DNA of 64,000 nucleotides from Pseudomonadota bacterium (GCA_043827325.1 JBDRPF010000071.1:7795-71794); one strand, 5' to 3'; numbered from the stretch's first letter, positions 8,751-16,454 are shown. The notes: a model not told the origin generated them from the sequence alone. Numbers and translations are program-made.

Positions 8751-8981
8751 ATGGGACAGGTTACCATTTATCTTGACCCTGAAACGGAGAGCAAAATGCT
8801 CAACATGATAAAAAAAAGCGGTATTTCCAAAAGCAAATGGATTGCTGAATTAATCCGAGACAAAACGGCCAACGCCTGGCCGGAAAACGTCAAAAAACTT
8901 GCAGGGGCCTGGGAAGATCTGCCGACGGCCGAAAAAATCAGAGAAGACATGGCGAATGATGCGGAGAGGGAATCGATCTGA
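8751..8981 (+). CDS. vapB: RHH/CopG-like antitoxin (VapB-type)
   Basis: 76 aa, MGQVTIYLD..SKSKWIAELI; stop overlaps the PIN toxin start. Confidence 0.7.
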   Translation: MGQVTIYLDPETESKMLNMIKKSGISKSKWIAELIRDKTANAWPENVKKLAGAWEDLPTAEKIREDMANDAERESI

Positions 8982-9382
8982 TGTATATTCTCGACACAAA
9001 TACCCTGGTTTATTTTTTTAAGGGCGTGGGAAATGTTTCCAAACATATGCTCACGGTACCGCCAAAAGATATTGGCATCCCTACCATTGTTCTTTTTGAG
9101 TTAGAATTGGGGATCGCAAAATCAACATCGCCCGAGAAAAGACAGACTCAACTGAAAAATTTAACCGCCGTTGTTAACATTCTTCCTTTTGGTTATGACG
9201 AGGTAAAATGCGCGGCGTCCATCCGTATTAATCTGGAGCGAAAAGGAATGCCCATCGGTCCATACGACATACTGATTGCCGGAGTTGCAATGGCGAACAA
9301 AGGCATCCTTGTAACCCACAACGCAAAGGAGTTCGGGCGTATAAAAGGTATTCAGGTTGAAGACTGGTATGAAGCAAATTAA
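8981..9382 (+). CDS. vapC: PIN-domain toxin VapC
   Basis: YILDTN, LFEL..G, IGPYDILIAG, LVTHN..EF..I.G..VEDW. Confidence 0.9.
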   Translation: MYILDTNTLVYFFKGVGNVSKHMLTVPPKDIGIPTIVLFELELGIAKSTSPEKRQTQLKNLTAVVNILPFGYDEVKCAASIRINLERKGMPIGPYDILIAGVAMANKGILVTHNAKEFGRIKGIQVEDWYEAN

Positions 9383-9478
9383 ATGCCTATTGACTTACCG
9401 AAAAAAAGTTGGATATTCTTTACCACATGATTTTCATTCAGAGATTGCAAACCATTCTATTCTTCACGGAGGTAAAAC

Positions 9479-9886
9479 ATGACTGAATCACTGAAGGCCG
9501 GCATGACCCATGAAATCGAACGGCAAACAACGGAAGATATGTCGGCACAAAAGGTCTTCCCTCACGTCCCCAATGTCTATGCTACGAGCGTGATGGTGGG
9601 ACACATGGAAGAGGTTTGTGCAGGGATGGTCCACCCTCACCTGGGTGAAGGCGAGCAAACCGTTGGCATCGGAATGCAATTCTCGCACACGGCGGCGACG
9701 CCTTTGGGAATGACGGTTCGGTTCAGCACCAAGTTGATCGAGATAGATGGCCGAAAACTGGTCTTCGAGGTGGAAGGCTTTGATGAGGCAGGCAGTATCG
9801 GCAAAGCCACCCATCAGCGATTTATTATCAATGCGGACAAATTCAACAGCAAGATGGCGGAAAAAGCTGAAAAATCAGGAAAATAA
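9479..9886 (+). CDS. hotdog thioesterase, fluoroacetyl-CoA thioesterase (FlK) family
   Basis: VYATSVMVGHME, TVG....SHTAATPLGM, HQRFII. Confidence 0.8.
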   Translation: MTESLKAGMTHEIERQTTEDMSAQKVFPHVPNVYATSVMVGHMEEVCAGMVHPHLGEGEQTVGIGMQFSHTAATPLGMTVRFSTKLIEIDGRKLVFEVEGFDEAGSIGKATHQRFIINADKFNSKMAEKAEKSGK

Positions 9887-9891
9887 AAGAT

Positions 9892-9946
9892 TTTGACAGG
9901 ATAACAGGATAAAAAATCATCTTGTCTATCCGGTTATCCTGTCTAA
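9892..9946. repeat. inverted 9-bp array (ACAGGAT / ATCCTGT)
   Basis: TTTGACAGGATAACAGGATAA...ATCTTGTCTATCCGGTTATCCTGTCTAAA; half copy at 13809-13830. Confidence 0.6.
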
Positions 9947-9966
9947 AATATACAAGGAGGTGCGTC

Positions 9967-11988
9967 ATGGCAATGCCAGACTCCATTAGCCAATTGGACG
10001 CCGTTTTGAAACCCAAAAGCGTGGCCGTTATCGGGGCTTCGACCAGCCCGGGAAAACTGGGCCATGAAATCATGAAAAACATACTGGACAGCGGCTTTAA
10101 AGGGGCTGTCTACCCCATCAATCCCAAAGCCGCCGCCATCCTGGATATTCCCTGCCATGTGAGTGTCAAAGATATTGCCGAAGCGCCGGATCTCGCCGTC
10201 ATCATCATCCCGGCCCGATTTGTCCCGCAGGCGGTTCAGGAGTGCGGTGAAGCCGGCGTAAAGGGCGTGGTGATTATTACCGGCGGTTTCAGCGAGTCCG
10301 GGCCTGAAGGAGAAGCGCTTCAGCAGCAGGTGGTTGAAAATGCCCGAAAGTACGGTGTCCGTGTCATCGGGCCCAACTGCCAGGGCGTAAACAATCCCCA
10401 TCACCCCCTGTGCGCGTCCTGGCCGCTGTTGACCTACCGGGGCAAAATCGCGCTGCTTTCCCAGAGCGGAACGGTGGGCGCGGCCATGATGGACTGGCTG
10501 TCCGAAGACAAGCTGGGAACCGCCGGTTTTGTCAGTATGGGAAACCGGGCCGATGTGGATGAAGCGGATCTGATCGCCTATTTCAATCAGGATCCAAACA
10601 CCGAGGTTATCGCTGCCTACATCGAGGGCATAAAACGCCCGGAGCGGTTCATCGAAGCGGTAAAGCAACTCAAAAAACCGCTGGTGATTCTCAAGTCGGG
10701 CCGTACCCCGAAAGGCAAGGTGGCGGCCGAATCCCACACCAAGTCTCTGGCAGGCGCTGATGCCATTTATGAGGCCCTCTTTTCAAAATACAACATCTGC
10801 AGGGCCTACACCGCGGAAGAATTTTACGACTATGCCAAGGCCCTGGCCTATCTGAAAGCACCCAAGGGCAACCGTATTCTGTTTATCACCACATCGGGCG
10901 GCGCCGCCATTCTTGCCACGGATCAGGCCGAGCAGGAAGGTCTGGATGTCTCTCCATTGCCGGACGAGGCCGTGGAAGCCGTCACACCGCTCATTCCCGC
11001 ACATGCCATTAAATCCAACCCCATAGATCTCACAGGCGACGCCACCGCTCAGATGTTCGGTGAGGTGATCGGGGTAACTCGAAAATATTACGACACCCTG
11101 GGCGTGATTTTCGGAGACCCGGTGGAGGGCGCTTCCAATGTGGCAACCCCCGGTGCCAATGAACTGATAATCTTTTACGGCGGGGCAGATGTCGAACGCC
11201 ATGAAAGAGAACTCATGCACCTCAAGGGGATTCCCGTTTTTCCCACACCGGAACGCGGGATCAAGGCCCTTGCCAGGGTCATTGAAAAAAAGAAGCTGGC
11301 GGCGGCACAAAAACCCACAATAACCGTCCCGGCAACGGGGCGCCATGTCTCCCCGTATCAGGCGATGACACGAATTGCCGGGCAGGGGATTCCCTGCGCC
11401 GGTTTCGGTCGGGCAGGGAGTGCCGCCGGTGCGGTCAAAATCGCAAAAGAGCAGGGCTTCCCAGTGGTGCTCAAAATCAGCTCCCCGGACATTCTCCATA
11501 AAAGCGACGTGGGCGGCGTTCGCCTCAATCTGGATTCTCCTGAGGCGGTAGAGAAAGCATACGAAAAAATGCTGGCAGCGGTCCGCCGCGCCCTGCCGGA
11601 GGCCCGGGCAGGGGATGTGCTGGTGGGCAAGATGGCGCCGCCGGGGCTGGAGGTCATCATCGGCATGAATCGCGACCCGCAGTTTGGCCCGGTCATGCTG
11701 TTCGGGCTCGGGGGCATCATGGTCGAAATCTTCCAGGACGTCAGCCTGAGGCTTCTTCCCTTGAGTCGTGGTGAGGCGCTGGATATGATCCGGGAAATCA
11801 AGGGGTACACGCTTCTCTCAGGGTACCGCGGCCGGCCGGCGGTGGATGAGCAGGCCCTGGCCGACTGTCTCATAACGGTGGCTCAAATGGCTGAAAACCA
11901 TCCCGAGATTCTCGAGATCGATCTGAACCCGGTCATCGCCTACCCGGATGGGATACTGGTGGTAGACGCAAGGATCATTGAAAAATAA
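9967..11988 (+). CDS. ADP-forming acyl-CoA synthetase (CoA-binding + ligase + ATP-grasp)
   Basis: PKSVAVIGAS, IGPNCQG, SQSG, phospho-His site SHT, HKSDVGGV, DPQFGP, EIDLNP; ATG 9967 after AGGAGG. Confidence 0.9.
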   Translation: MAMPDSISQLDAVLKPKSVAVIGASTSPGKLGHEIMKNILDSGFKGAVYPINPKAAAILDIPCHVSVKDIAEAPDLAVIIIPARFVPQAVQECGEAGVKGVVIITGGFSESGPEGEALQQQVVENARKYGVRVIGPNCQGVNNPHHPLCASWPLLTYRGKIALLSQSGTVGAAMMDWLSEDKLGTAGFVSMGNRADVDEADLIAYFNQDPNTEVIAAYIEGIKRPERFIEAVKQLKKPLVILKSGRTPKGKVAAESHTKSLAGADAIYEALFSKYNICRAYTAEEFYDYAKALAYLKAPKGNRILFITTSGGAAILATDQAEQEGLDVSPLPDEAVEAVTPLIPAHAIKSNPIDLTGDATAQMFGEVIGVTRKYYDTLGVIFGDPVEGASNVATPGANELIIFYGGADVERHERELMHLKGIPVFPTPERGIKALARVIEKKKLAAAQKPTITVPATGRHVSPYQAMTRIAGQGIPCAGFGRAGSAAGAVKIAKEQGFPVVLKISSPDILHKSDVGGVRLNLDSPEAVEKAYEKMLAAVRRALPEARAGDVLVGKMAPPGLEVIIGMNRDPQFGPVMLFGLGGIMVEIFQDVSLRLLPLSRGEALDMIREIKGYTLLSGYRGRPAVDEQALADCLITVAQMAENHPEILEIDLNPVIAYPDGILVVDARIIEK

Positions 11989-12002
11989 AAGAAGAAATCA
12001 AT

Positions 12003-12941
12003 ATGACATCAGAAACCGACCGGCTGATATCGAAACTCAAAGCCCGTTACCCTATGCTGCAGTACTTCACGGACCGCACATTTGGTGTGGAAATCGAGTT
12101 TTTCGGGTTGCAATATGTTGCCATACCGACAAACAACGGCATCATAAAACCTTACAATATTTCCTCTCGAGCCAAAGATGGACGGCACATGCTCGATCTG
12201 ATTAAGGATAACAAAATACCTATAGGTGATGACAGGGAATCCTGGCATTTCGAGAAAGATAGATCGGTTAGAGGAAAAGGTCATACCAAATGCGGCGCCG
12301 AACTAACCAGCCCCATCCTGAGTGGAATAAACGGACTGATGCAGGTCTACCGGATGTTCCAGTTTCTCAGTGACATCGCGGGAATCGATATCGACAAATC
12401 CTGCGGGCTTCATGTCCATCACGGCGTTGACCCGGCTAAGTATAACTGTGCACACCTGCAGCAGCTCGTCCGGATCGTCCATCCGTTTGAAAAACAGTTA
12501 TATTTGCTTATTCCTGGAAATCGAGAGGAAGCGGATACCTGCCGGCCCATGGAAATCAATGTGGAGGCCTTTTTGGATATCTGTGAAGCTTACACAGAAA
12601 CCGGCAGCTGCGAGATCAAAAATCTCTGGTATTCGACTAAAAATCGATGTGAAGAGGAATCCAGAAATTATACCCGCTATGACAAAACCCGATACCACGG
12701 TTTGAACCTCCACTCCTACTGGTATCGCTCCACCATTGAATTTCGATATCATTCAGCCATATTGCACAACATCGATGAAGCCATGCAGTGGATCGTTTTC
12801 ACGCAGTTTCTCGTTGAATTGAGTCAGGGGAATGCCCCGAAAATCTTCTACTTCCCCGAAGCAAACAAGTGGATGGAAACCATATACGATATTTACATGG
12901 ATCTGGGATATGAAAATCAGATCAAGATGGTCGCAAACTAG
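12003..12941 (+). CDS. putative amidoligase (Amidoligase_2, COOH-NH2 ligase fold)
   Basis: RTFGVEIEF, D.SV, AELTSPIL, SCGLHVH, RYHGLNL, TIEFR. Confidence 0.8.
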   Translation: MTSETDRLISKLKARYPMLQYFTDRTFGVEIEFFGLQYVAIPTNNGIIKPYNISSRAKDGRHMLDLIKDNKIPIGDDRESWHFEKDRSVRGKGHTKCGAELTSPILSGINGLMQVYRMFQFLSDIAGIDIDKSCGLHVHHGVDPAKYNCAHLQQLVRIVHPFEKQLYLLIPGNREEADTCRPMEINVEAFLDICEAYTETGSCEIKNLWYSTKNRCEEESRNYTRYDKTRYHGLNLHSYWYRSTIEFRYHSAILHNIDEAMQWIVFTQFLVELSQGNAPKIFYFPEANKWMETIYDIYMDLGYENQIKMVAN

Positions 12942-12956
12942 CCCGAATCGATTTTT

Positions 12957-13017
12957 CAAAATAATGACCGGCAGAACGATCGGATTGGAGAATTATTTTG
13001 CCCTAAATTATTTTGCC
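12957..13017. repeat. GGCAAAATAAT inverted dimer repeat, copy B
   Basis: CAAAATAAT/GGCAGAACGAT, then ATTATTTTGCC twice at 12992 and 13007. Confidence 0.65.
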
Positions 13018-13045
13018 GGTGATTTATCGCAAAGTGGAGACGATC

Positions 13046-13786
13046 ATGTGTGATGTTCTCGCCATATCGGCAGGATACAACTATACGCCCCAAAAGTACC
13101 TGCCCATATTCGCGGAAAAGGGCAAGGAAAACATGAACGGCTGGGGTATCGGCTTTTTTCGCGAGGACCAGGCCCTGGTGGAAAGGTCCTCGGAGCAGGT
13201 GTTCAGCAATCAGCAAGTTCATGAAAGCTTCCAGAGGCTTGCCCGGGTCATCGACAGCCGGATCATTATATCCCATGTCAACTGTCCGAAGAGCGGCGGC
13301 CGGCACGGCGGGGAAAGCCTCCCCCATATGCTCCATTTTCTGGACCACACCTGGCTTTTTGTTCAGATCGGCGCTATTAAGGAAATAGAAACATACCGGA
13401 CCGTCAAAGGCCCCCGGCTGGAAATCGAGGTCTTTACAGCCAGAATTTTTGAGTATTTGAGAGATCAACTGATTTCATTGACGGAACAAAATCCATACAT
13501 CAGCTTGTATATGGCCCTGCGCCTGGGTATTGAAAAGCTCCTTTCAGACTATCCGGGGCGTTACATTTTTTTTCTGGCCAACGAATCGGTGCTGTTCGCT
13601 TTCTGCAATTTTCGGCAATTCCTAATCCTCAAGGAATCCGAGAGAATGGGAGATATCCTGCTCATCACCTCTCTCAAACAGGGGCTAAGCCCGAACAACT
13701 GGCTTTCGATCAAGCCTGAAAAGAATTCCAAAGGAAAGCTCGTGGTCATTGCCGGGCCGGATTTGCTGTATGTCGATGATGTATAA
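13046..13786 (+). CDS. class II glutamine amidotransferase-like protein (YafJ/EgtC-like), degenerate active-site motifs
   Basis: N-terminal MC, NGWGIGFF, ISHV; HNG replaced by QIG and the conserved Arg is absent; paralog of the next gene. Confidence 0.75.
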   Translation: MCDVLAISAGYNYTPQKYLPIFAEKGKENMNGWGIGFFREDQALVERSSEQVFSNQQVHESFQRLARVIDSRIIISHVNCPKSGGRHGGESLPHMLHFLDHTWLFVQIGAIKEIETYRTVKGPRLEIEVFTARIFEYLRDQLISLTEQNPYISLYMALRLGIEKLLSDYPGRYIFFLANESVLFAFCNFRQFLILKESERMGDILLITSLKQGLSPNNWLSIKPEKNSKGKLVVIAGPDLLYVDDV

Positions 13787-13831
13787 ATAAGGCCAACATC
13801 ACCAGATTAATCTTGTAATCCTGTCAAAAAA

Positions 13832-14575
13832 ATGTGTGACCTTTTTGCCCTCTCTGCAAAGAAAGATTACTCGTTGCCCAGATCCCTGCCTGTCTTCGCG
13901 TATCAGGCCCGGAAAAACATGGACGGCTGGGGCATCGGCTATTTCAGGAAACATCATGCCTTTGTGGAGAAGTCGGCGAAACGCGTTTTTGTTTCAGGGC
14001 AGGTTCACGACAGTCTCGAGAGACTGGCCCGGGTCGTGAAAAGCCGGATTATCATCTGCCACGTCCGTTTTCAAACCAGCGGCCCTGTTGATGAATGCCA
14101 TGCCCATCCCTTTACCCTTCGCTTCGCCGGTCACAACTGGATATTCGCCCACAATGGAAAGGCACCGGCCATTGAATCCTATAAAAGCACCGGTATCGTC
14201 ATCGAGGACGCCGTAAGCGATTCGGCGCGGACGTTTGAGTGTCTGCGGGACCATCTGCTGGAGAATTTTCAGATGGGAATCGGCGTTCCGGATCTTTTTA
14301 AAACCCTGTGCCGGGGCACGGAACAAATGGTTGATATGTATCCCGGCGAGTACAATTACCTGCTGTCCAACGGCAGGATTATCTTCGCCTTCACCAACCA
14401 TCGACAGTTTATGTTTCTCAAGGAGAGCAAAAGGCTGGAGGCCGGTCTGCTCCTGACCACCGTAGCCCGCGGCCTCAGCAATGAAAAGTGGCAGCGGATG
14501 GCCCGGGCTTCCAATCGAAAAGGTATGCTTCTGGCGATTTCGGGGACGGATATAATTTTGCAGGAATCGTTCTAA
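13832..14575 (+). CDS. class II glutamine amidotransferase (YafJ/EgtC-like Ntn hydrolase)
   Basis: MCDLF, DGWGIGYF, HVRFQTSG, HPF, FAHNG, DSARTF, NYLLSNG. Confidence 0.85.
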   Translation: MCDLFALSAKKDYSLPRSLPVFAYQARKNMDGWGIGYFRKHHAFVEKSAKRVFVSGQVHDSLERLARVVKSRIIICHVRFQTSGPVDECHAHPFTLRFAGHNWIFAHNGKAPAIESYKSTGIVIEDAVSDSARTFECLRDHLLENFQMGIGVPDLFKTLCRGTEQMVDMYPGEYNYLLSNGRIIFAFTNHRQFMFLKESKRLEAGLLLTTVARGLSNEKWQRMARASNRKGMLLAISGTDIILQESF

Positions 14576-14601
14576 GATTTTAGATTGCCGACTGCGTATT
14601 T

Positions 14602-14668
14602 GGCAAAATCATTGATGGCAAAATAATTAAACCAAATCTGTAATCATTTTTCCCGAAATTATTTTGCT
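14602..14668. repeat. GGCAAAATAAT inverted dimer repeat, copy C
   Basis: GGCAAAATCAT/GGCAAAATAAT (14602, 14617) and inverted units at 14643 and 14658; overlaps the thioesterase stop. Confidence 0.65.
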
Positions 14669-15081
14669 AAAGAAAGCCCCTGTAGTTTCTCTGCTATCAT
14701 CTTCGGCAGCGGTATGGCCTTCCAGGTGTGATCGATCGCCACGAACGTGACGCTGCCCTCGGCGCACAGCCGGGTCTCCGGGGGGCGGTAGAAATGAAAC
14801 TGGAAAACAATGGCCTTTTCCTTGATTTCCCTGACAGATGTGTGCATTTCGAGCGATTCGCCGTAATGGGCCGGGACAAAAAAACGGCAATCCGCGGCGA
14901 CTTTGGGCATTCCGAATTTTTCATCCGTGTTCCGGAAAAAGGTCTCCGGGGGTATGCCGATACTGCTGAGGAACTCTTCGATACCGATGTGGAAATAACG
15001 GAAATAGGCCACAAAGTAAACCACGCCGTACGGGTCGGTATCACCGAAACGGACTTTAATCCGGGTCTTGTGTGTCAGCAT
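14659..15081 (-). CDS. acyl-CoA thioesterase (4HBT/YbgC family)
   Basis: VRFGDTDPYGVVYF..YFRYF; ATG 15081 preceded by GGAGG. Confidence 0.85.
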   Translation of the reverse strand: MLTHKTRIKVRFGDTDPYGVVYFVAYFRYFHIGIEEFLSSIGIPPETFFRNTDEKFGMPKVAADCRFFVPAHYGESLEMHTSVREIKEKAIVFQFHFYRPPETRLCAEGSVTFVAIDHTWKAIPLPKMIAEKLQGLSLAK

Positions 15082-15310
15082 GTTGCACCTCCTGCGGATT
15101 CGAGATGAAGCGTCCGGGTTGTCGCACCCCATCAATTTTACTGGCATAACCGGACAGAGTATGTCAATACAAAAGCATGCGATTTTAAATTGTCCGTGTT
15201 CATGGACAAGATAATGGCGTTGACAGCTGCCGGGAAGAACCCGCGGAGGCGATACACCGGTGGGTGTCCCGGGCAAACAGGTTGCCCGAATAAATAATAG
15301 GGTAGGCACG

Positions 15311-16069
15311 ATGTCTGAAAAAGGTACTGTTTTCTTTCCGGAACGTTTCCTCGAAGCAACACCAAAGAATTACGGATTAAAAGATTACGAGGATGTTTTC
15401 TTTTCCGCGGAAGATGGAACCCGATTACACGGCTGGTTTGTTTCCGGGCCGGATGAACGGGCCGTCCTGTTATGGTTTCACGGCAATGCAGGAAACATCA
15501 GCCATCGTCTGGACAACCTGAAAAGGCTGCATGACGCTTTGCAGATCCCGATTTTTATCTTTGATTATCGGGAATACGGGCTGAGCGAAGGCGAAATCTC
15601 AAAAGCCGGCACCTTTTCGGATGCCTATGGCGCACTGCGCCATCTTAAAGACGAGAAGGGGTTTTCGGCCTCTTCAATTCTCCTGTTCGGTCGTTCCCTG
15701 GGAACCGCCCTTGCAGTGGATCTCGCCGCCAACACAGAATGCCTCGGGGTGATCCTGGAGGCCGCCTTTACCTCAACCGATGACATGATGCGAATGTATG
15801 CCCCGTTCATACCGCCGCAGCCGAAGACGGCGCGTAAATATGACAGCCTGTCCTTGATTCACCGGATCCGCTCACCCATTCTGTTTCTTCACGGTCAGTT
15901 TGACATGACCATTCCCGTGTCTATGGGGCGCAAATTGTATGAGACGGCACAGTCGCCCAAGGAATTTTATGAAATACCGGGGGCGGGACACAACGACACC
16001 TATCTTGTCGGCGGAAACGCATATTTTGCCGTGTGGCAAAAATTTTTGATACAATGTCTCAACAGTTAA
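15311..16069 (+). CDS. alpha/beta hydrolase (ABHD13/Bem46-like)
   Basis: FHGNAGNI, DYREYG, GRSLG nucleophile, HGQFD, GAGHND. Confidence 0.85.
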   Translation: MSEKGTVFFPERFLEATPKNYGLKDYEDVFFSAEDGTRLHGWFVSGPDERAVLLWFHGNAGNISHRLDNLKRLHDALQIPIFIFDYREYGLSEGEISKAGTFSDAYGALRHLKDEKGFSASSILLFGRSLGTALAVDLAANTECLGVILEAAFTSTDDMMRMYAPFIPPQPKTARKYDSLSLIHRIRSPILFLHGQFDMTIPVSMGRKLYETAQSPKEFYEIPGAGHNDTYLVGGNAYFAVWQKFLIQCLNS

Positions 16070-16109: not shown

Positions 16110-16454
16110 ATGGAAGCGGAAAAAGACGAAATACAAGACGATTTAGACTGGGAGCGTCGCACATTGTGCAGTGACGAAAGCTGTATCGGAGTCATCGGCG
16201 CTGACGGGCGCTGTAATGAGTGTGGAAAAGCCTATGACGGTGAACCGCCGGAAGAAGATCCGGAAGCAGGCGCCGGAGAAAAATATGTTGAAGATAATGC
16301 GCTTGAAACCGGTGTCCCGGATGACGAAGACGCCGATGCGACATCGGACGTCGACTGGGAACACCGTACGCTGTGCAGCGACGAAAGCTGTATCGGGGTC
16401 ATCGACCCTGACGGGCGCTGCAATGAATGCGGCAAGCCGTTCAAAGACAGGTGA
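16110..16454 (+). CDS. small acidic protein with two tandem Cys4 modules
   Basis: two copies of DWE.RTLCSDESCIGVI..DGRCNECGK with mostly synonymous DNA differences (16146-16232 vs 16353-16439). Confidence 0.75.
   Translation: MEAEKDEIQDDLDWERRTLCSDESCIGVIGADGRCNECGKAYDGEPPEEDPEAGAGEKYVEDNALETGVPDDEDADATSDVDWEHRTLCSDESCIGVIDPDGRCNECGKPFKDR

Follow-up and report, generated by a model that had tools for sequence, protein, structure and literature searches.

What reaction could be served by a predicted carboxylate–amine ligase whose gene is followed by two sister glutamine amidotransferase (GATase) genes, one with the residues that bind glutamine and one without them? This question is raised by a 64,000-nucleotide stretch of DNA from a Pseudomonadota bacterium (GCA_043827325.1, JBDRPF010000071.1:7795–71794), referred to here as a whole as the window. 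Three genes on its + strand form the element under study: the Amidoligase_2 gene, for which we use the shorthand AMDL (12003–12941; 312 amino acids; PF12224), and the two GATase_4 paralogs behind it, GAT1 (13046–13786; 246 amino acids; PF13230) and GAT2 (13832–14575; 247 amino acids; PF13230). GAT1 is a paralog with the class-II GATase fold of cysteine N-terminal nucleophile (Ntn) enzymes, and GAT2 is a stand-alone class-II GATase_4 or Ntn amidohydrolase. The spacers measure 104 nucleotides (nt) between AMDL and GAT1 and 45 nt between GAT1 and GAT2. Our open reading frame (ORF) calls place the three genes in 12003–14575, in agreement with a preliminary description of this DNA. Our analyses revealed that the trio is real and conserved; the pairing of such a ligase with class-II GATases had been predicted already, and the fixed tandem of an intact and a re-tooled GATase is new. 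As to function, we tentatively propose, with a probability of roughly 0.45, that the trio is a make-and-break γ-glutamyl-amide pathway resembling EgtA/EgtC of ergothioneine synthesis, in which GAT1 is a re-tooled partner.

AMDL Resembles Carboxylate–Amine Ligases

Searches with profile hidden Markov models assigned AMDL to Amidoligase_2 and both GATs to GATase_4, all above the cut-off, as would be expected from the preliminary description. The AMDL match (E 4e-29, 102.6 bits, cut-off 22) covers positions 2 to 243 of the 245 in the PF12224 profile. To this family assignment an alignment of AMDL with 23 relatives, 44 to 84% identical to it, adds a set of residues that are invariant in 23/23 rows: E30-x-E32, E100, H137-x-H139-H140, and E246-x-R248, the very motifs (E-x-E, E, H-x-H, and E-x-R) described earlier as intact, together with R230, H232, and two cysteines. 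The conserved acidic, histidine, and arginine residues probably form a metal/ATP site of the glutamine synthetase (GS) type, an assignment made from their pattern rather than by superposition on GS.

An AlphaFold model of AMDL had a mean predicted local distance difference test score (pLDDT) of 76.8 and a predicted template modeling score (pTM) of 0.82. Its best Foldseek matches were the YbdK structures 1tt4 and 1r8g (E 4.5e-4 to 6e-4, probability 0.97 to 0.99), followed by GS and γ-glutamylcysteine synthetase (γ-GCS), and in the VIA comparison all 50 rows listed were GS, YbdK, or γ-GCS, with Z scores of 8.0 to 9.1 over ∼200 aligned residues. The 1-naphthylamine GS (8x6z/8wwu) is among the structural matches. 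By sequence, a search of solved structures gave no relative of AMDL at E values up to 1. The structural scores, modest but consistent, point to a GS/GCS2-like COOH–NH2 ligase fold, and from fold and motifs together AMDL is predicted to be an ATP-dependent carboxylate–amine ligase.

GAT1 and GAT2 Differ in the Glutamine Pocket

GAT2 matches the GATase_4 profile PF13230 with an E value of 2.5e-27 (96 bits, cut-off 23), and GAT1 matches it with 2.1e-9 (37.1 bits). The residues that define class II, in PurF numbering Cys1, Arg73, Asn101, Gly102, and Asp127, were matched to C2, R79, N108, G109, and D130 of GAT2; C2, R79, the H-P-F at 92–94, N108-G109, and D130 are invariant in 15/15 ortholog rows. 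The best solved relatives of GAT2 by sequence are 1te5_A (1.2e-9) and EgtC (0.02). Against the EgtC equivalog TIGR03442, which has a cut-off of 218.65 bits, GAT2 scores 41.8 bits and GAT1 20.1, both well below. Judged by its residues, GAT2 appears to be a canonical stand-alone class-II (Ntn) amidohydrolase with the full glutamine-binding set.

For GAT1 we take as start the ATG at 13046, which is preceded by a GGAG and yields the opening Met-Cys-Asp that all orthologs share, in preference to the TTG at 13013 of the mechanical ORF call. Its Cys2, the equivalent of the Cys1 nucleophile, is kept in 20/20 GAT1 orthologs. The same 20 orthologs have N/S/T/K in place of R79 of GAT2, I/V in place of N108, and F/Y/A in place of D130, and the GAT2-invariant R79, N108, S129, and D130 are found in none of them. 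At its polar end, the glutamine pocket has thus become hydrophobic in GAT1. The protein lacks the Arg and Asp for binding glutamine and the Asn of the oxyanion hole and is therefore not strictly a glutamine amidotransferase. A deep-branching GAT1 copy in genome G056 retains the Arg and has Thr and Leu at the Asn and Asp positions, indicating that the losses of Asn and Asp are old and that the loss of Arg came later.

The fold of GAT1 is nevertheless predicted to be retained. Its model (pLDDT 77.7) is a class-II GATase Ntn sandwich with Z scores of 18 to 21 to class-II GATase chains, specifically 20.9 to 1te5 (root mean square deviation 3.5 over 219 residues), 20.2 to PurF 1ecb, and 20.2 to EgtC 4zfl; the inactive domains of β-lactam and carbapenam synthetases (1jgt, 1q15) follow at 9.8 to 12.3. 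Model confidence falls below a pLDDT of 50 at residues 81 to 89, a loop in which the lost Arg/Thr motif lies and a patch private to the window begins. Nor is the gene decaying. Nonsynonymous to synonymous rate ratios (dN/dS; Nei–Gojobori, pairs with dS <1.5) span 0.051 to 0.292 for GAT1 (41 pairs) and 0.055 to 0.272 for GAT2 (25 pairs), so that GAT1 is under purifying selection and the neutral decay (dN/dS ∼1) considered in the preliminary description as a point that would tell against a functional module is not seen.

The same description had read HVR, HPF, HNG, and DS in GAT2, and HVN, PHM, QIG, and no DS in GAT1. All of these are present in the window, and the loss of the Arg, Asn, and Asp equivalents extends across the 20 orthologs. 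PHM does not hold as a family trait: LPHM in the place of HPF is private to the window GAT1, most orthologs having HPF and those of L010 and L014 HPL. The private patch lies at ∼13300–13340, corresponding to GAT1 residues ∼86 to 96, and consists of local substitutions. A frameshift as the source of LPHM was rejected, as HPF appears in neither of the other two frames. In three RNA libraries, contigs that are otherwise 95 to 99% alike depart from the window at 13299 and continue with the HPF version, and the patch may reflect strain variation or a mosaic in the assembly.

These residues bear on an arrangement in which the trio would be a glutamine-dependent amidoligase, with GAT2 a glutaminase feeding ammonia to AMDL, AMDL amidating a carboxylate activated as an acyl phosphate, and GAT1 a catalytically silent partner of GAT2 in the ammonia path or at the docking surface. 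GAT2 has the glutamine-binding and catalytic set that such a role would require, GAT1 is conserved without substrate-binding residues as a structural subunit might be, the three genes keep company in all nine sampled genomes with the pair (see below), and GS-fold enzymes can use ammonia as nucleophile, as glutamine synthetase does. The retention of Cys1 in all 20 orthologs, however, is not what one would expect of a silent subunit, and in several genomes AMDL and the GAT pair are not linked. In G005, the single genome examined for this, AMDL-B, a second Amidoligase_2 lineage, is not accompanied by a second GAT pair. To our knowledge, a class-II glutaminase domain is almost always part of the same polypeptide as its synthase (PurF, GlmS, AsnB, GltS). 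The stand-alone GATase_4 protein with a known role, EgtC, is moreover a hydrolase in the account of the pathway given in PMC9103826. On balance, we regard a glutamine-dependent amidoligase as rather unlikely. In an unlikely three-subunit variant, GAT1 and GAT2 together would build the ammonia path, or Cys1 of GAT1 would carry the acyl or amine substrate. If true, a three-subunit amidoligase would be the first GS-fold synthetase fed by a separate class-II glutaminase.

The GAT Pair Arose by One Old Duplication

Aligned over 243 residues, GAT1 and GAT2 share 42% identity (E 7e-67), which makes them true paralogs rather than a chance match. The motif strings earlier listed as common to the two are present, with one correction: in MCD..A.SA..Y a dot is missing ahead of the Y. 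When 1.84 billion cluster representatives were searched with a profile built from GAT1 orthologs, only 336 proteins matched at E ≤1e-3 and 26 at E ≤1e-30. Among the best 150 were 70 full-length representatives; five lack the Asn and Asp, and 65 have the Arg, Gly, and Asp (62 of the 65 also the Asn). In a tree of 48 rows, a GAT1 clade of 13 rows (support 100/99) is sister to a GAT2 clade of nine rows (93/77), the two being joined at 100/99, and 26 other representatives fall outside both. The three representatives without Asn and Asp that the tree includes (P0241–P0243) all fall inside the GAT1 clade. The sister relationship indicates one old duplication that gave a canonical and a re-tooled copy, both kept since. 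In line with a GAT1 that is not decaying, mean pairwise identity across 15 genomes is 63.7% for AMDL, 66.0% for GAT2, and 65.5% for GAT1, and between Desulfobacterales and Syntrophobacterales it is 58.8, 58.7, and 60.7%, respectively.

The Trio Is Conserved in Two Orders of Bacteria

AMDL relatives were found at 38 loci when one genome per species was scanned, and twelve window proteins were compared with these loci by tblastn. Both GATs stand directly behind AMDL in 15/38 loci, nine of them in Desulfobacterales (L005, L006, L007, L009, L010, L011, L014, L015, L019) and six in Syntrophobacterales (L029, L031, L032, L035, L036, L037), one of the latter (L037) being from the cultured isolate Desulfoferrobacter suflitae DRH4. 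GAT1 alone follows AMDL in four more: in L028 the contig then ends, and in L030, L033, and L034 there is no GAT2 within at least the next 1.1 kb. No GAT is found near AMDL in the other 19, namely, L008, L012, L013, L042, 11 AMDL-B loci, and four loci of a clade 45% identical to the window AMDL. At least one GAT therefore lies behind AMDL in 19/38 loci, and a further genome, G152, is arranged likewise. The triplet that had been put forward as a module is thus adjacent in two orders, and the linkage of ligase and class-II GATase noted with it corresponds to a pairing predicted before. The carriers of the trio are sulfate-reducing and syntrophic bacteria. Two of the loci show broken genes: GAT2 at L005:8673–9112, from a single-cell assembly, matches in two adjacent frames, and so does the AMDL at L042:7068–7941, which is 46% identical to that of the window and keeps the liv–FlK–synthetase context; either could reflect a frameshift or a sequencing error.

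Where AMDL stands alone, the GAT pair can be elsewhere in the genome. This is the case for L013, L008, and L012 (genomes G001–G003), in which GAT1 and GAT2 are in tandem with spacers of ∼6 to 10 nt and still adjoin the thioesterase or the α/β hydrolase seen in the window. The retention of these neighbors indicates that a rearrangement split AMDL from the GAT pair. At its new site the pair stands behind SelD, rhodanese, and MauE genes. In the genome of L034 (G004), GAT2 is on another contig, and G056, which has an AMDL of the 45% clade, carries a degenerate/intact GAT tandem on another contig. There, a Clp1-type P-loop gene (PF16575; L048:7481–8593, − strand) overlaps the start of the GAT1-like gene. 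GAT1 without an adjacent GAT2 in L030, L033, and L034 shows that the GAT pair is not inseparable. GAT1 is in tandem with GAT2 in nearly all genomes but with AMDL in this one clade, and is thus tied to both partners.

Genomes were sampled at three ranks. In a sample of 200 genomes from the phylum, the GAT pair occurs in three and PF12224 in nine; all three genomes with the pair have a low-scoring (98 to 115 bit) AMDL subtype, and the other six PF12224 genomes (34 to 218 bits) are without the pair. In 200 genomes of the class, the pair is present in 6/6 members of the window's family and 0/194 others, and all six have AMDL, either adjacent or in positions consistent with adjacency across contig breaks. 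Pair and AMDL thus occur together in 9/9 sampled genomes with the GAT pair, a count that, the genomes being kin, describes a pattern and is no statistical test. Within the family, AMDL was found in 34/40 sampled genomes, 19/20 of those of high quality, and 10/11 genera; it is nearly core there.

A Possible Make-and-Break Pathway

In the make-and-break pathway that we favor, AMDL would convert a carboxylate to an acyl phosphate at the expense of ATP and would then join it to an amine, as fold and motifs suggest; acyl phosphates and amides are what enzymes of its fold family make. The carboxylate would most likely be the γ-carboxyl of glutamate. GAT2, by its conserved residues an amidohydrolase of the YafJ/EgtC type, would bind a γ-glutamyl moiety with free α-amino and α-carboxylate groups and would cleave the γ-glutamyl amide, either after an intervening step or to the free amine. 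GAT1, with Cys1 kept and hydrophobic residues (I/V, F/Y/A) at the site of glutamine's polar end, most likely works together with GAT2, since the two are sisters and stand in tandem in nearly all genomes. As a partner subunit, it might help to form the pocket that receives the substrate's non-glutamyl half; alternatively, it might be a second amidase acting on a different acyl group. The cyclotransferase and GATase genes beside phage ligases and the decarboxylase genes beside AMDL-B, both described below, are hints of γ-glutamyl chemistry; together with the zincin neighbors of AMDL-B, they indicate that the family recurs with amine producers and amide hydrolases.

Several points weigh against this pathway. 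A ligase and a hydrolase of the same bond would run in a futile cycle if nothing intervened, and no enzyme for an intervening step is conserved beside the trio. Glutamate as the acid used by AMDL is suggested by analogy, and the searchable literature yielded no substrate, activity, or biochemical report for any Amidoligase_2 protein. GAT2, so far under the EgtC cut-off, could be a plain glutaminase. The trio also comes apart: AMDL is unlinked from the GATs in L008, L012, L013, G014, and G056, and in the L030/L033/L034 clade GAT1 is with AMDL and GAT2 is not adjacent (it is elsewhere in G004, the one genome checked). In the window itself, the 104-nt spacer and a repeat motif of its own separate the GAT pair from AMDL.

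Neighboring Genes, Repeats, and Expression

Upstream of AMDL lies a gene for an ADP-forming (NDP-forming) acyl-CoA synthetase (9964–11988, + strand; Pfam ATP-grasp_5, Succ_CoA_lig, and CoA_binding), whose start was set to the ATG at 9964 in preference to the TTG at 9922 of the mechanical call. Its scores against the NCBIfam acetate–CoA ligase families are under their cut-offs. The gap of 14 nt between its stop at 11988 and the ATG of AMDL at 12003 is as reported in the preliminary description, which had also taken the synthetase as a guide to the substrate. The adjacency holds, and its value as such a guide is weakened: the synthetase is upstream of AMDL in 13/38 loci and in G152, and in 0/6 of the Syntrophobacterales trios. 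It is a lineage-specific neighbor, not a fixed part of the trio. The block upstream in the window comprises genes for an AMP-forming CoA ligase, an MBL-fold protein, LivKHMGF, a PIN protein, an FlK-type thioesterase, and the synthetase. Its theme, acid and acyl-CoA handling, does not accompany the trio across orders. Two genes in lower-GC stretches interrupt this otherwise syntenic operon, a 23S-IVP gene (PF05635; 7306–7740, +) between livG and livF and the PIN-domain (VapC-like) gene (8981–9382, +) between livF and the FlK thioesterase gene.

Downstream, a YbgC/4HBT-type acyl-CoA thioesterase gene (14659–15084, − strand; Pfam 4HBT_2) is convergent with GAT2 at a distance of 83 nt. It has this place behind GAT2 in L006, L009, L010, L011, L015, L019, L044, and L045 and is a syntenic neighbor of GAT2 in Desulfobacterales even where the GAT pair sits apart from AMDL. 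Farther on, at 16110–16454 (+), a 114-amino-acid acidic ORF with an internally duplicated CxxxC...CxxC zinc-ribbon-like unit has no Pfam match. No small ORF that could encode a tag or its target lies within 11988–14659 of the window.

A double direct repeat, AATTATTTTGCC-N4-AATTATTTTGCC, is found at 12992–13017 (+), 29 nt ahead of the GAT1 start, and again, inverted, at 14602–14627 (−), 27 nt past the GAT2 stop, so that two inverted copies bracket GAT1 and GAT2; a further copy, at 2002–2027 (−), lies in the gap that separates the AMP-binding CoA ligase gene from the MBL-fold gene. Across these three copies it reads AATTATTTTGCC-N4-AATkATTTTGCC, with a 15-bp period. The genome has eight copies (≤2 mismatches), four of them on the window's contig, and none of the reversed control. 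The repeat is kept upstream of GAT1 in the closest relatives (L005–L007), not in more distant ones, and L006 also has it downstream of GAT2. The element is a candidate for an operator specific to the lineage or for a small repeat; a reading as a σ54 site was rejected by eye, as the −12 element does not fit. A scan of 9300–15400 gave no convincing terminator between genes and 14 promoter-like sites, against 5.7 expected, none of them clearly placed.

Contigs of four estuary metatranscriptome libraries, 90 to 100% alike, cover the end of the synthetase gene, AMDL, GAT1, and GAT2, and span the synthetase/AMDL and GAT1/GAT2 junctions. None of those listed spans the AMDL/GAT1 spacer, and GAT2 is partly uncovered in three of the four runs, which counts neither way. 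Two other runs, X21 and X22, of the study that gave the best-matching DNA run, contained next to none of the sequence words. Such libraries can hold DNA and their contigs do not define transcripts, so that they give a weak hint that the trio is expressed.

Neighbors, spacer, and contigs together raise the prospect that the genes have no joint function, AMDL belonging to the liv/thioesterase/synthetase operon and the GAT pair being an independent unit with the convergent thioesterase. This would account for L008, L012, and L013, where AMDL remains with the synthetase and the GAT pair stands elsewhere with the YbgC thioesterase and the α/β hydrolase; the 104-nt spacer with its repeat sets the GAT pair apart, and RNA-library contigs cross the synthetase/AMDL junction. 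It would not account for the six Syntrophobacterales loci, in which AMDL, GAT1, and GAT2 are adjacent without the synthetase at 58 to 61% protein identity, nor for the presence of AMDL in all nine sampled genomes with the pair and the absence of the pair from the six with other PF12224 subtypes, and the same pairing of families recurs in phages. We consider separate functions very unlikely.

Other Amidoligase_2 Lineages

A tree of AMDL relatives with 38 rows, from which L042 was left out because its AMDL lies in two frames, contains an AMDL-B clade of 11 rows (100/99) that represents a duplication within Desulfobacterales. AMDL-B is 65 to 69% identical to the window AMDL (loci L016, 3715–7936; L017; L018; and L020–L027). 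An MfnA-like pyridoxal phosphate-dependent amino-acid decarboxylase, an amine producer, is encoded ahead of it in 4/11 loci, with one remnant in addition; a 493-amino-acid M3-like zincin, which falls into Peptidase M3/M32-like clusters of the ESM Atlas, is nearby in 9/11 and a 119-amino-acid zinc-ribbon-like ORF in 8/11. Kinship of this small ORF with the window ORF at 16110–16454 was rejected (E 25). The 45%-identity clade stands behind rpoA, rplQ, and a gene for an NlpC/P60 cell-wall peptidase. Here, a conserved ORF, likewise of 119 amino acids and rich in Cys in its C-terminal half, overlaps the AMDL stop or directly adjoins it (L039:7945–8307, L040:2432–2791, L041:7933–8292, and L047:6892–7251). 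It has no Pfam or NCBIfam match, its profile gave no match when searched against the 76%-complete genome of the window, and its product could be a partner or substrate of its AMDL.

Phage ligases, 23 to 30% identical to the window AMDL, have comparable neighbors. Arthrobacter phage Ottawa encodes a carboxylate-amine ligase beside a GATase, Bacillus phage 035JT001 encodes an Amidoligase_2 family member beside a γ-glutamyl cyclotransferase, and the LUZ24-like phage UFV-P2, according to the passage that describes these genes, has an amidoligase as ORF23 and a GATase of 486 amino acids as ORF25.

The small ORFs bring up peptide or protein tagging, in which AMDL would add a small protein, a peptide, or an amino acid to a protein or cell-wall peptide and the GATs, as thiol isopeptidases, would process the tag or take it off again. 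In the most distant AMDL clade, the ligase gene shows translational coupling to the Cys-rich ORF and follows the NlpC/P60 gene, AMDL-B lies near its small zinc-ribbon-like ORF and the zincin, and cell-wall or protein modification is cited as a suggested role in a passage of the phage literature (PMC10580990). The window's trio, however, has no small ORF inside it, and the profile of the Cys-rich ORF finds no counterpart in that incomplete genome. The Arg and Asp of GAT2, which would bind a free α-carboxylate and α-amino group, also fit a free γ-glutamyl head better than a residue embedded in a protein. For this trio, tagging seems to us distinctly unlikely.

Comparison with Known Systems

Iyer, Abhiman, Burroughs, and Aravind reportedly predicted the pairing of Amidoligase_2 with class-II GATases in Mol Biosyst in 2009 and proposed peptide or protein tagging. 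The Pfam text of PF12224 reportedly also names GAT-like thiol peptidase or AIG2 neighbors. Passages in PMC10580990, PMC10945688, and PMC3890496 refer to the 2009 prediction of neighborhoods of Amidoligase_2 with a class-II GATase or AIG2/GGCT gene in phages, plasmids, and bacteria. The window's trio shares with the phage cassettes a ligase of the same family beside a class-II GATase-like gene and a function that is predicted. Unlike it, the GATases observed in phages occur singly and are often larger, whereas the window has a fixed sister pair, one member of which is without the glutamine-binding residues; no report of such a tandem of an intact and a re-tooled GAT was found in the searchable literature. 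Phages and mobile elements commonly have Amidoligase_2 genes, as do some bacteria, and here the module is chromosomal, stable, and nearly core in one family of sulfate reducers. This stability and the presence of the trio in the cultured D. suflitae DRH4 make it more tractable than the phage versions, and a solution of the trio would probably transfer to the phage cassettes.

A close parallel to the make-and-break pathway is mycobacterial ergothioneine synthesis. In the account of PMC9103826, a ligase of the GS/GCS superfamily, EgtA, makes a γ-glutamyl amide from which a class-II Ntn hydrolase, EgtC, later removes the glutamyl group. Both systems have a ligase and a stand-alone Ntn hydrolase, and for both GATs EgtC (4zfj, 4zfk, 4zfl) belongs to the nearest relatives of known structure. 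They differ in that no EgtB, EgtD, or EgtE genes are found here, EgtA is a GCS and not an Amidoligase_2 protein, and the Egt pathway is without a second, re-tooled hydrolase. Pathways of amine γ-glutamylation, PuuA/PuuD and the γ-glutamylanilide and 1-naphthylamine systems, pair a GS-like ligase with a γ-glutamyl-amide hydrolase. They resemble the proposed scheme in the order of an ATP-dependent γ-glutamyl-amine ligase and then a hydrolase; unlike the trio, they use full-size GS ligases and class-I (triad) rather than Ntn hydrolases, with no paralog pair.

Among stand-alone relatives, E. coli YafJ is a GATase_4 protein, and searches of the GATase_4/PF13230/YafJ literature returned nothing relevant. 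The Pseudomonas aeruginosa protein 1TE5 is the top solved match both of GAT2, by sequence, and of the GAT1 model, by structure. YafJ and 1TE5 are single genes with the canonical catalytic set, and the sources consulted record no ligase partner or paralog pair for them. The GATase domains of β-lactam and carbapenam synthetases have lost the N-terminal Cys and are fused to the synthetase. GAT1 is like them in that the class-II fold was retained after loss of glutaminase residues, and unlike them in that it is a separate protein with Cys1 in all orthologs. The canonical and re-tooled Ntn hydrolases of this trio thus form a natural experiment on the re-purposing of the glutaminase fold.

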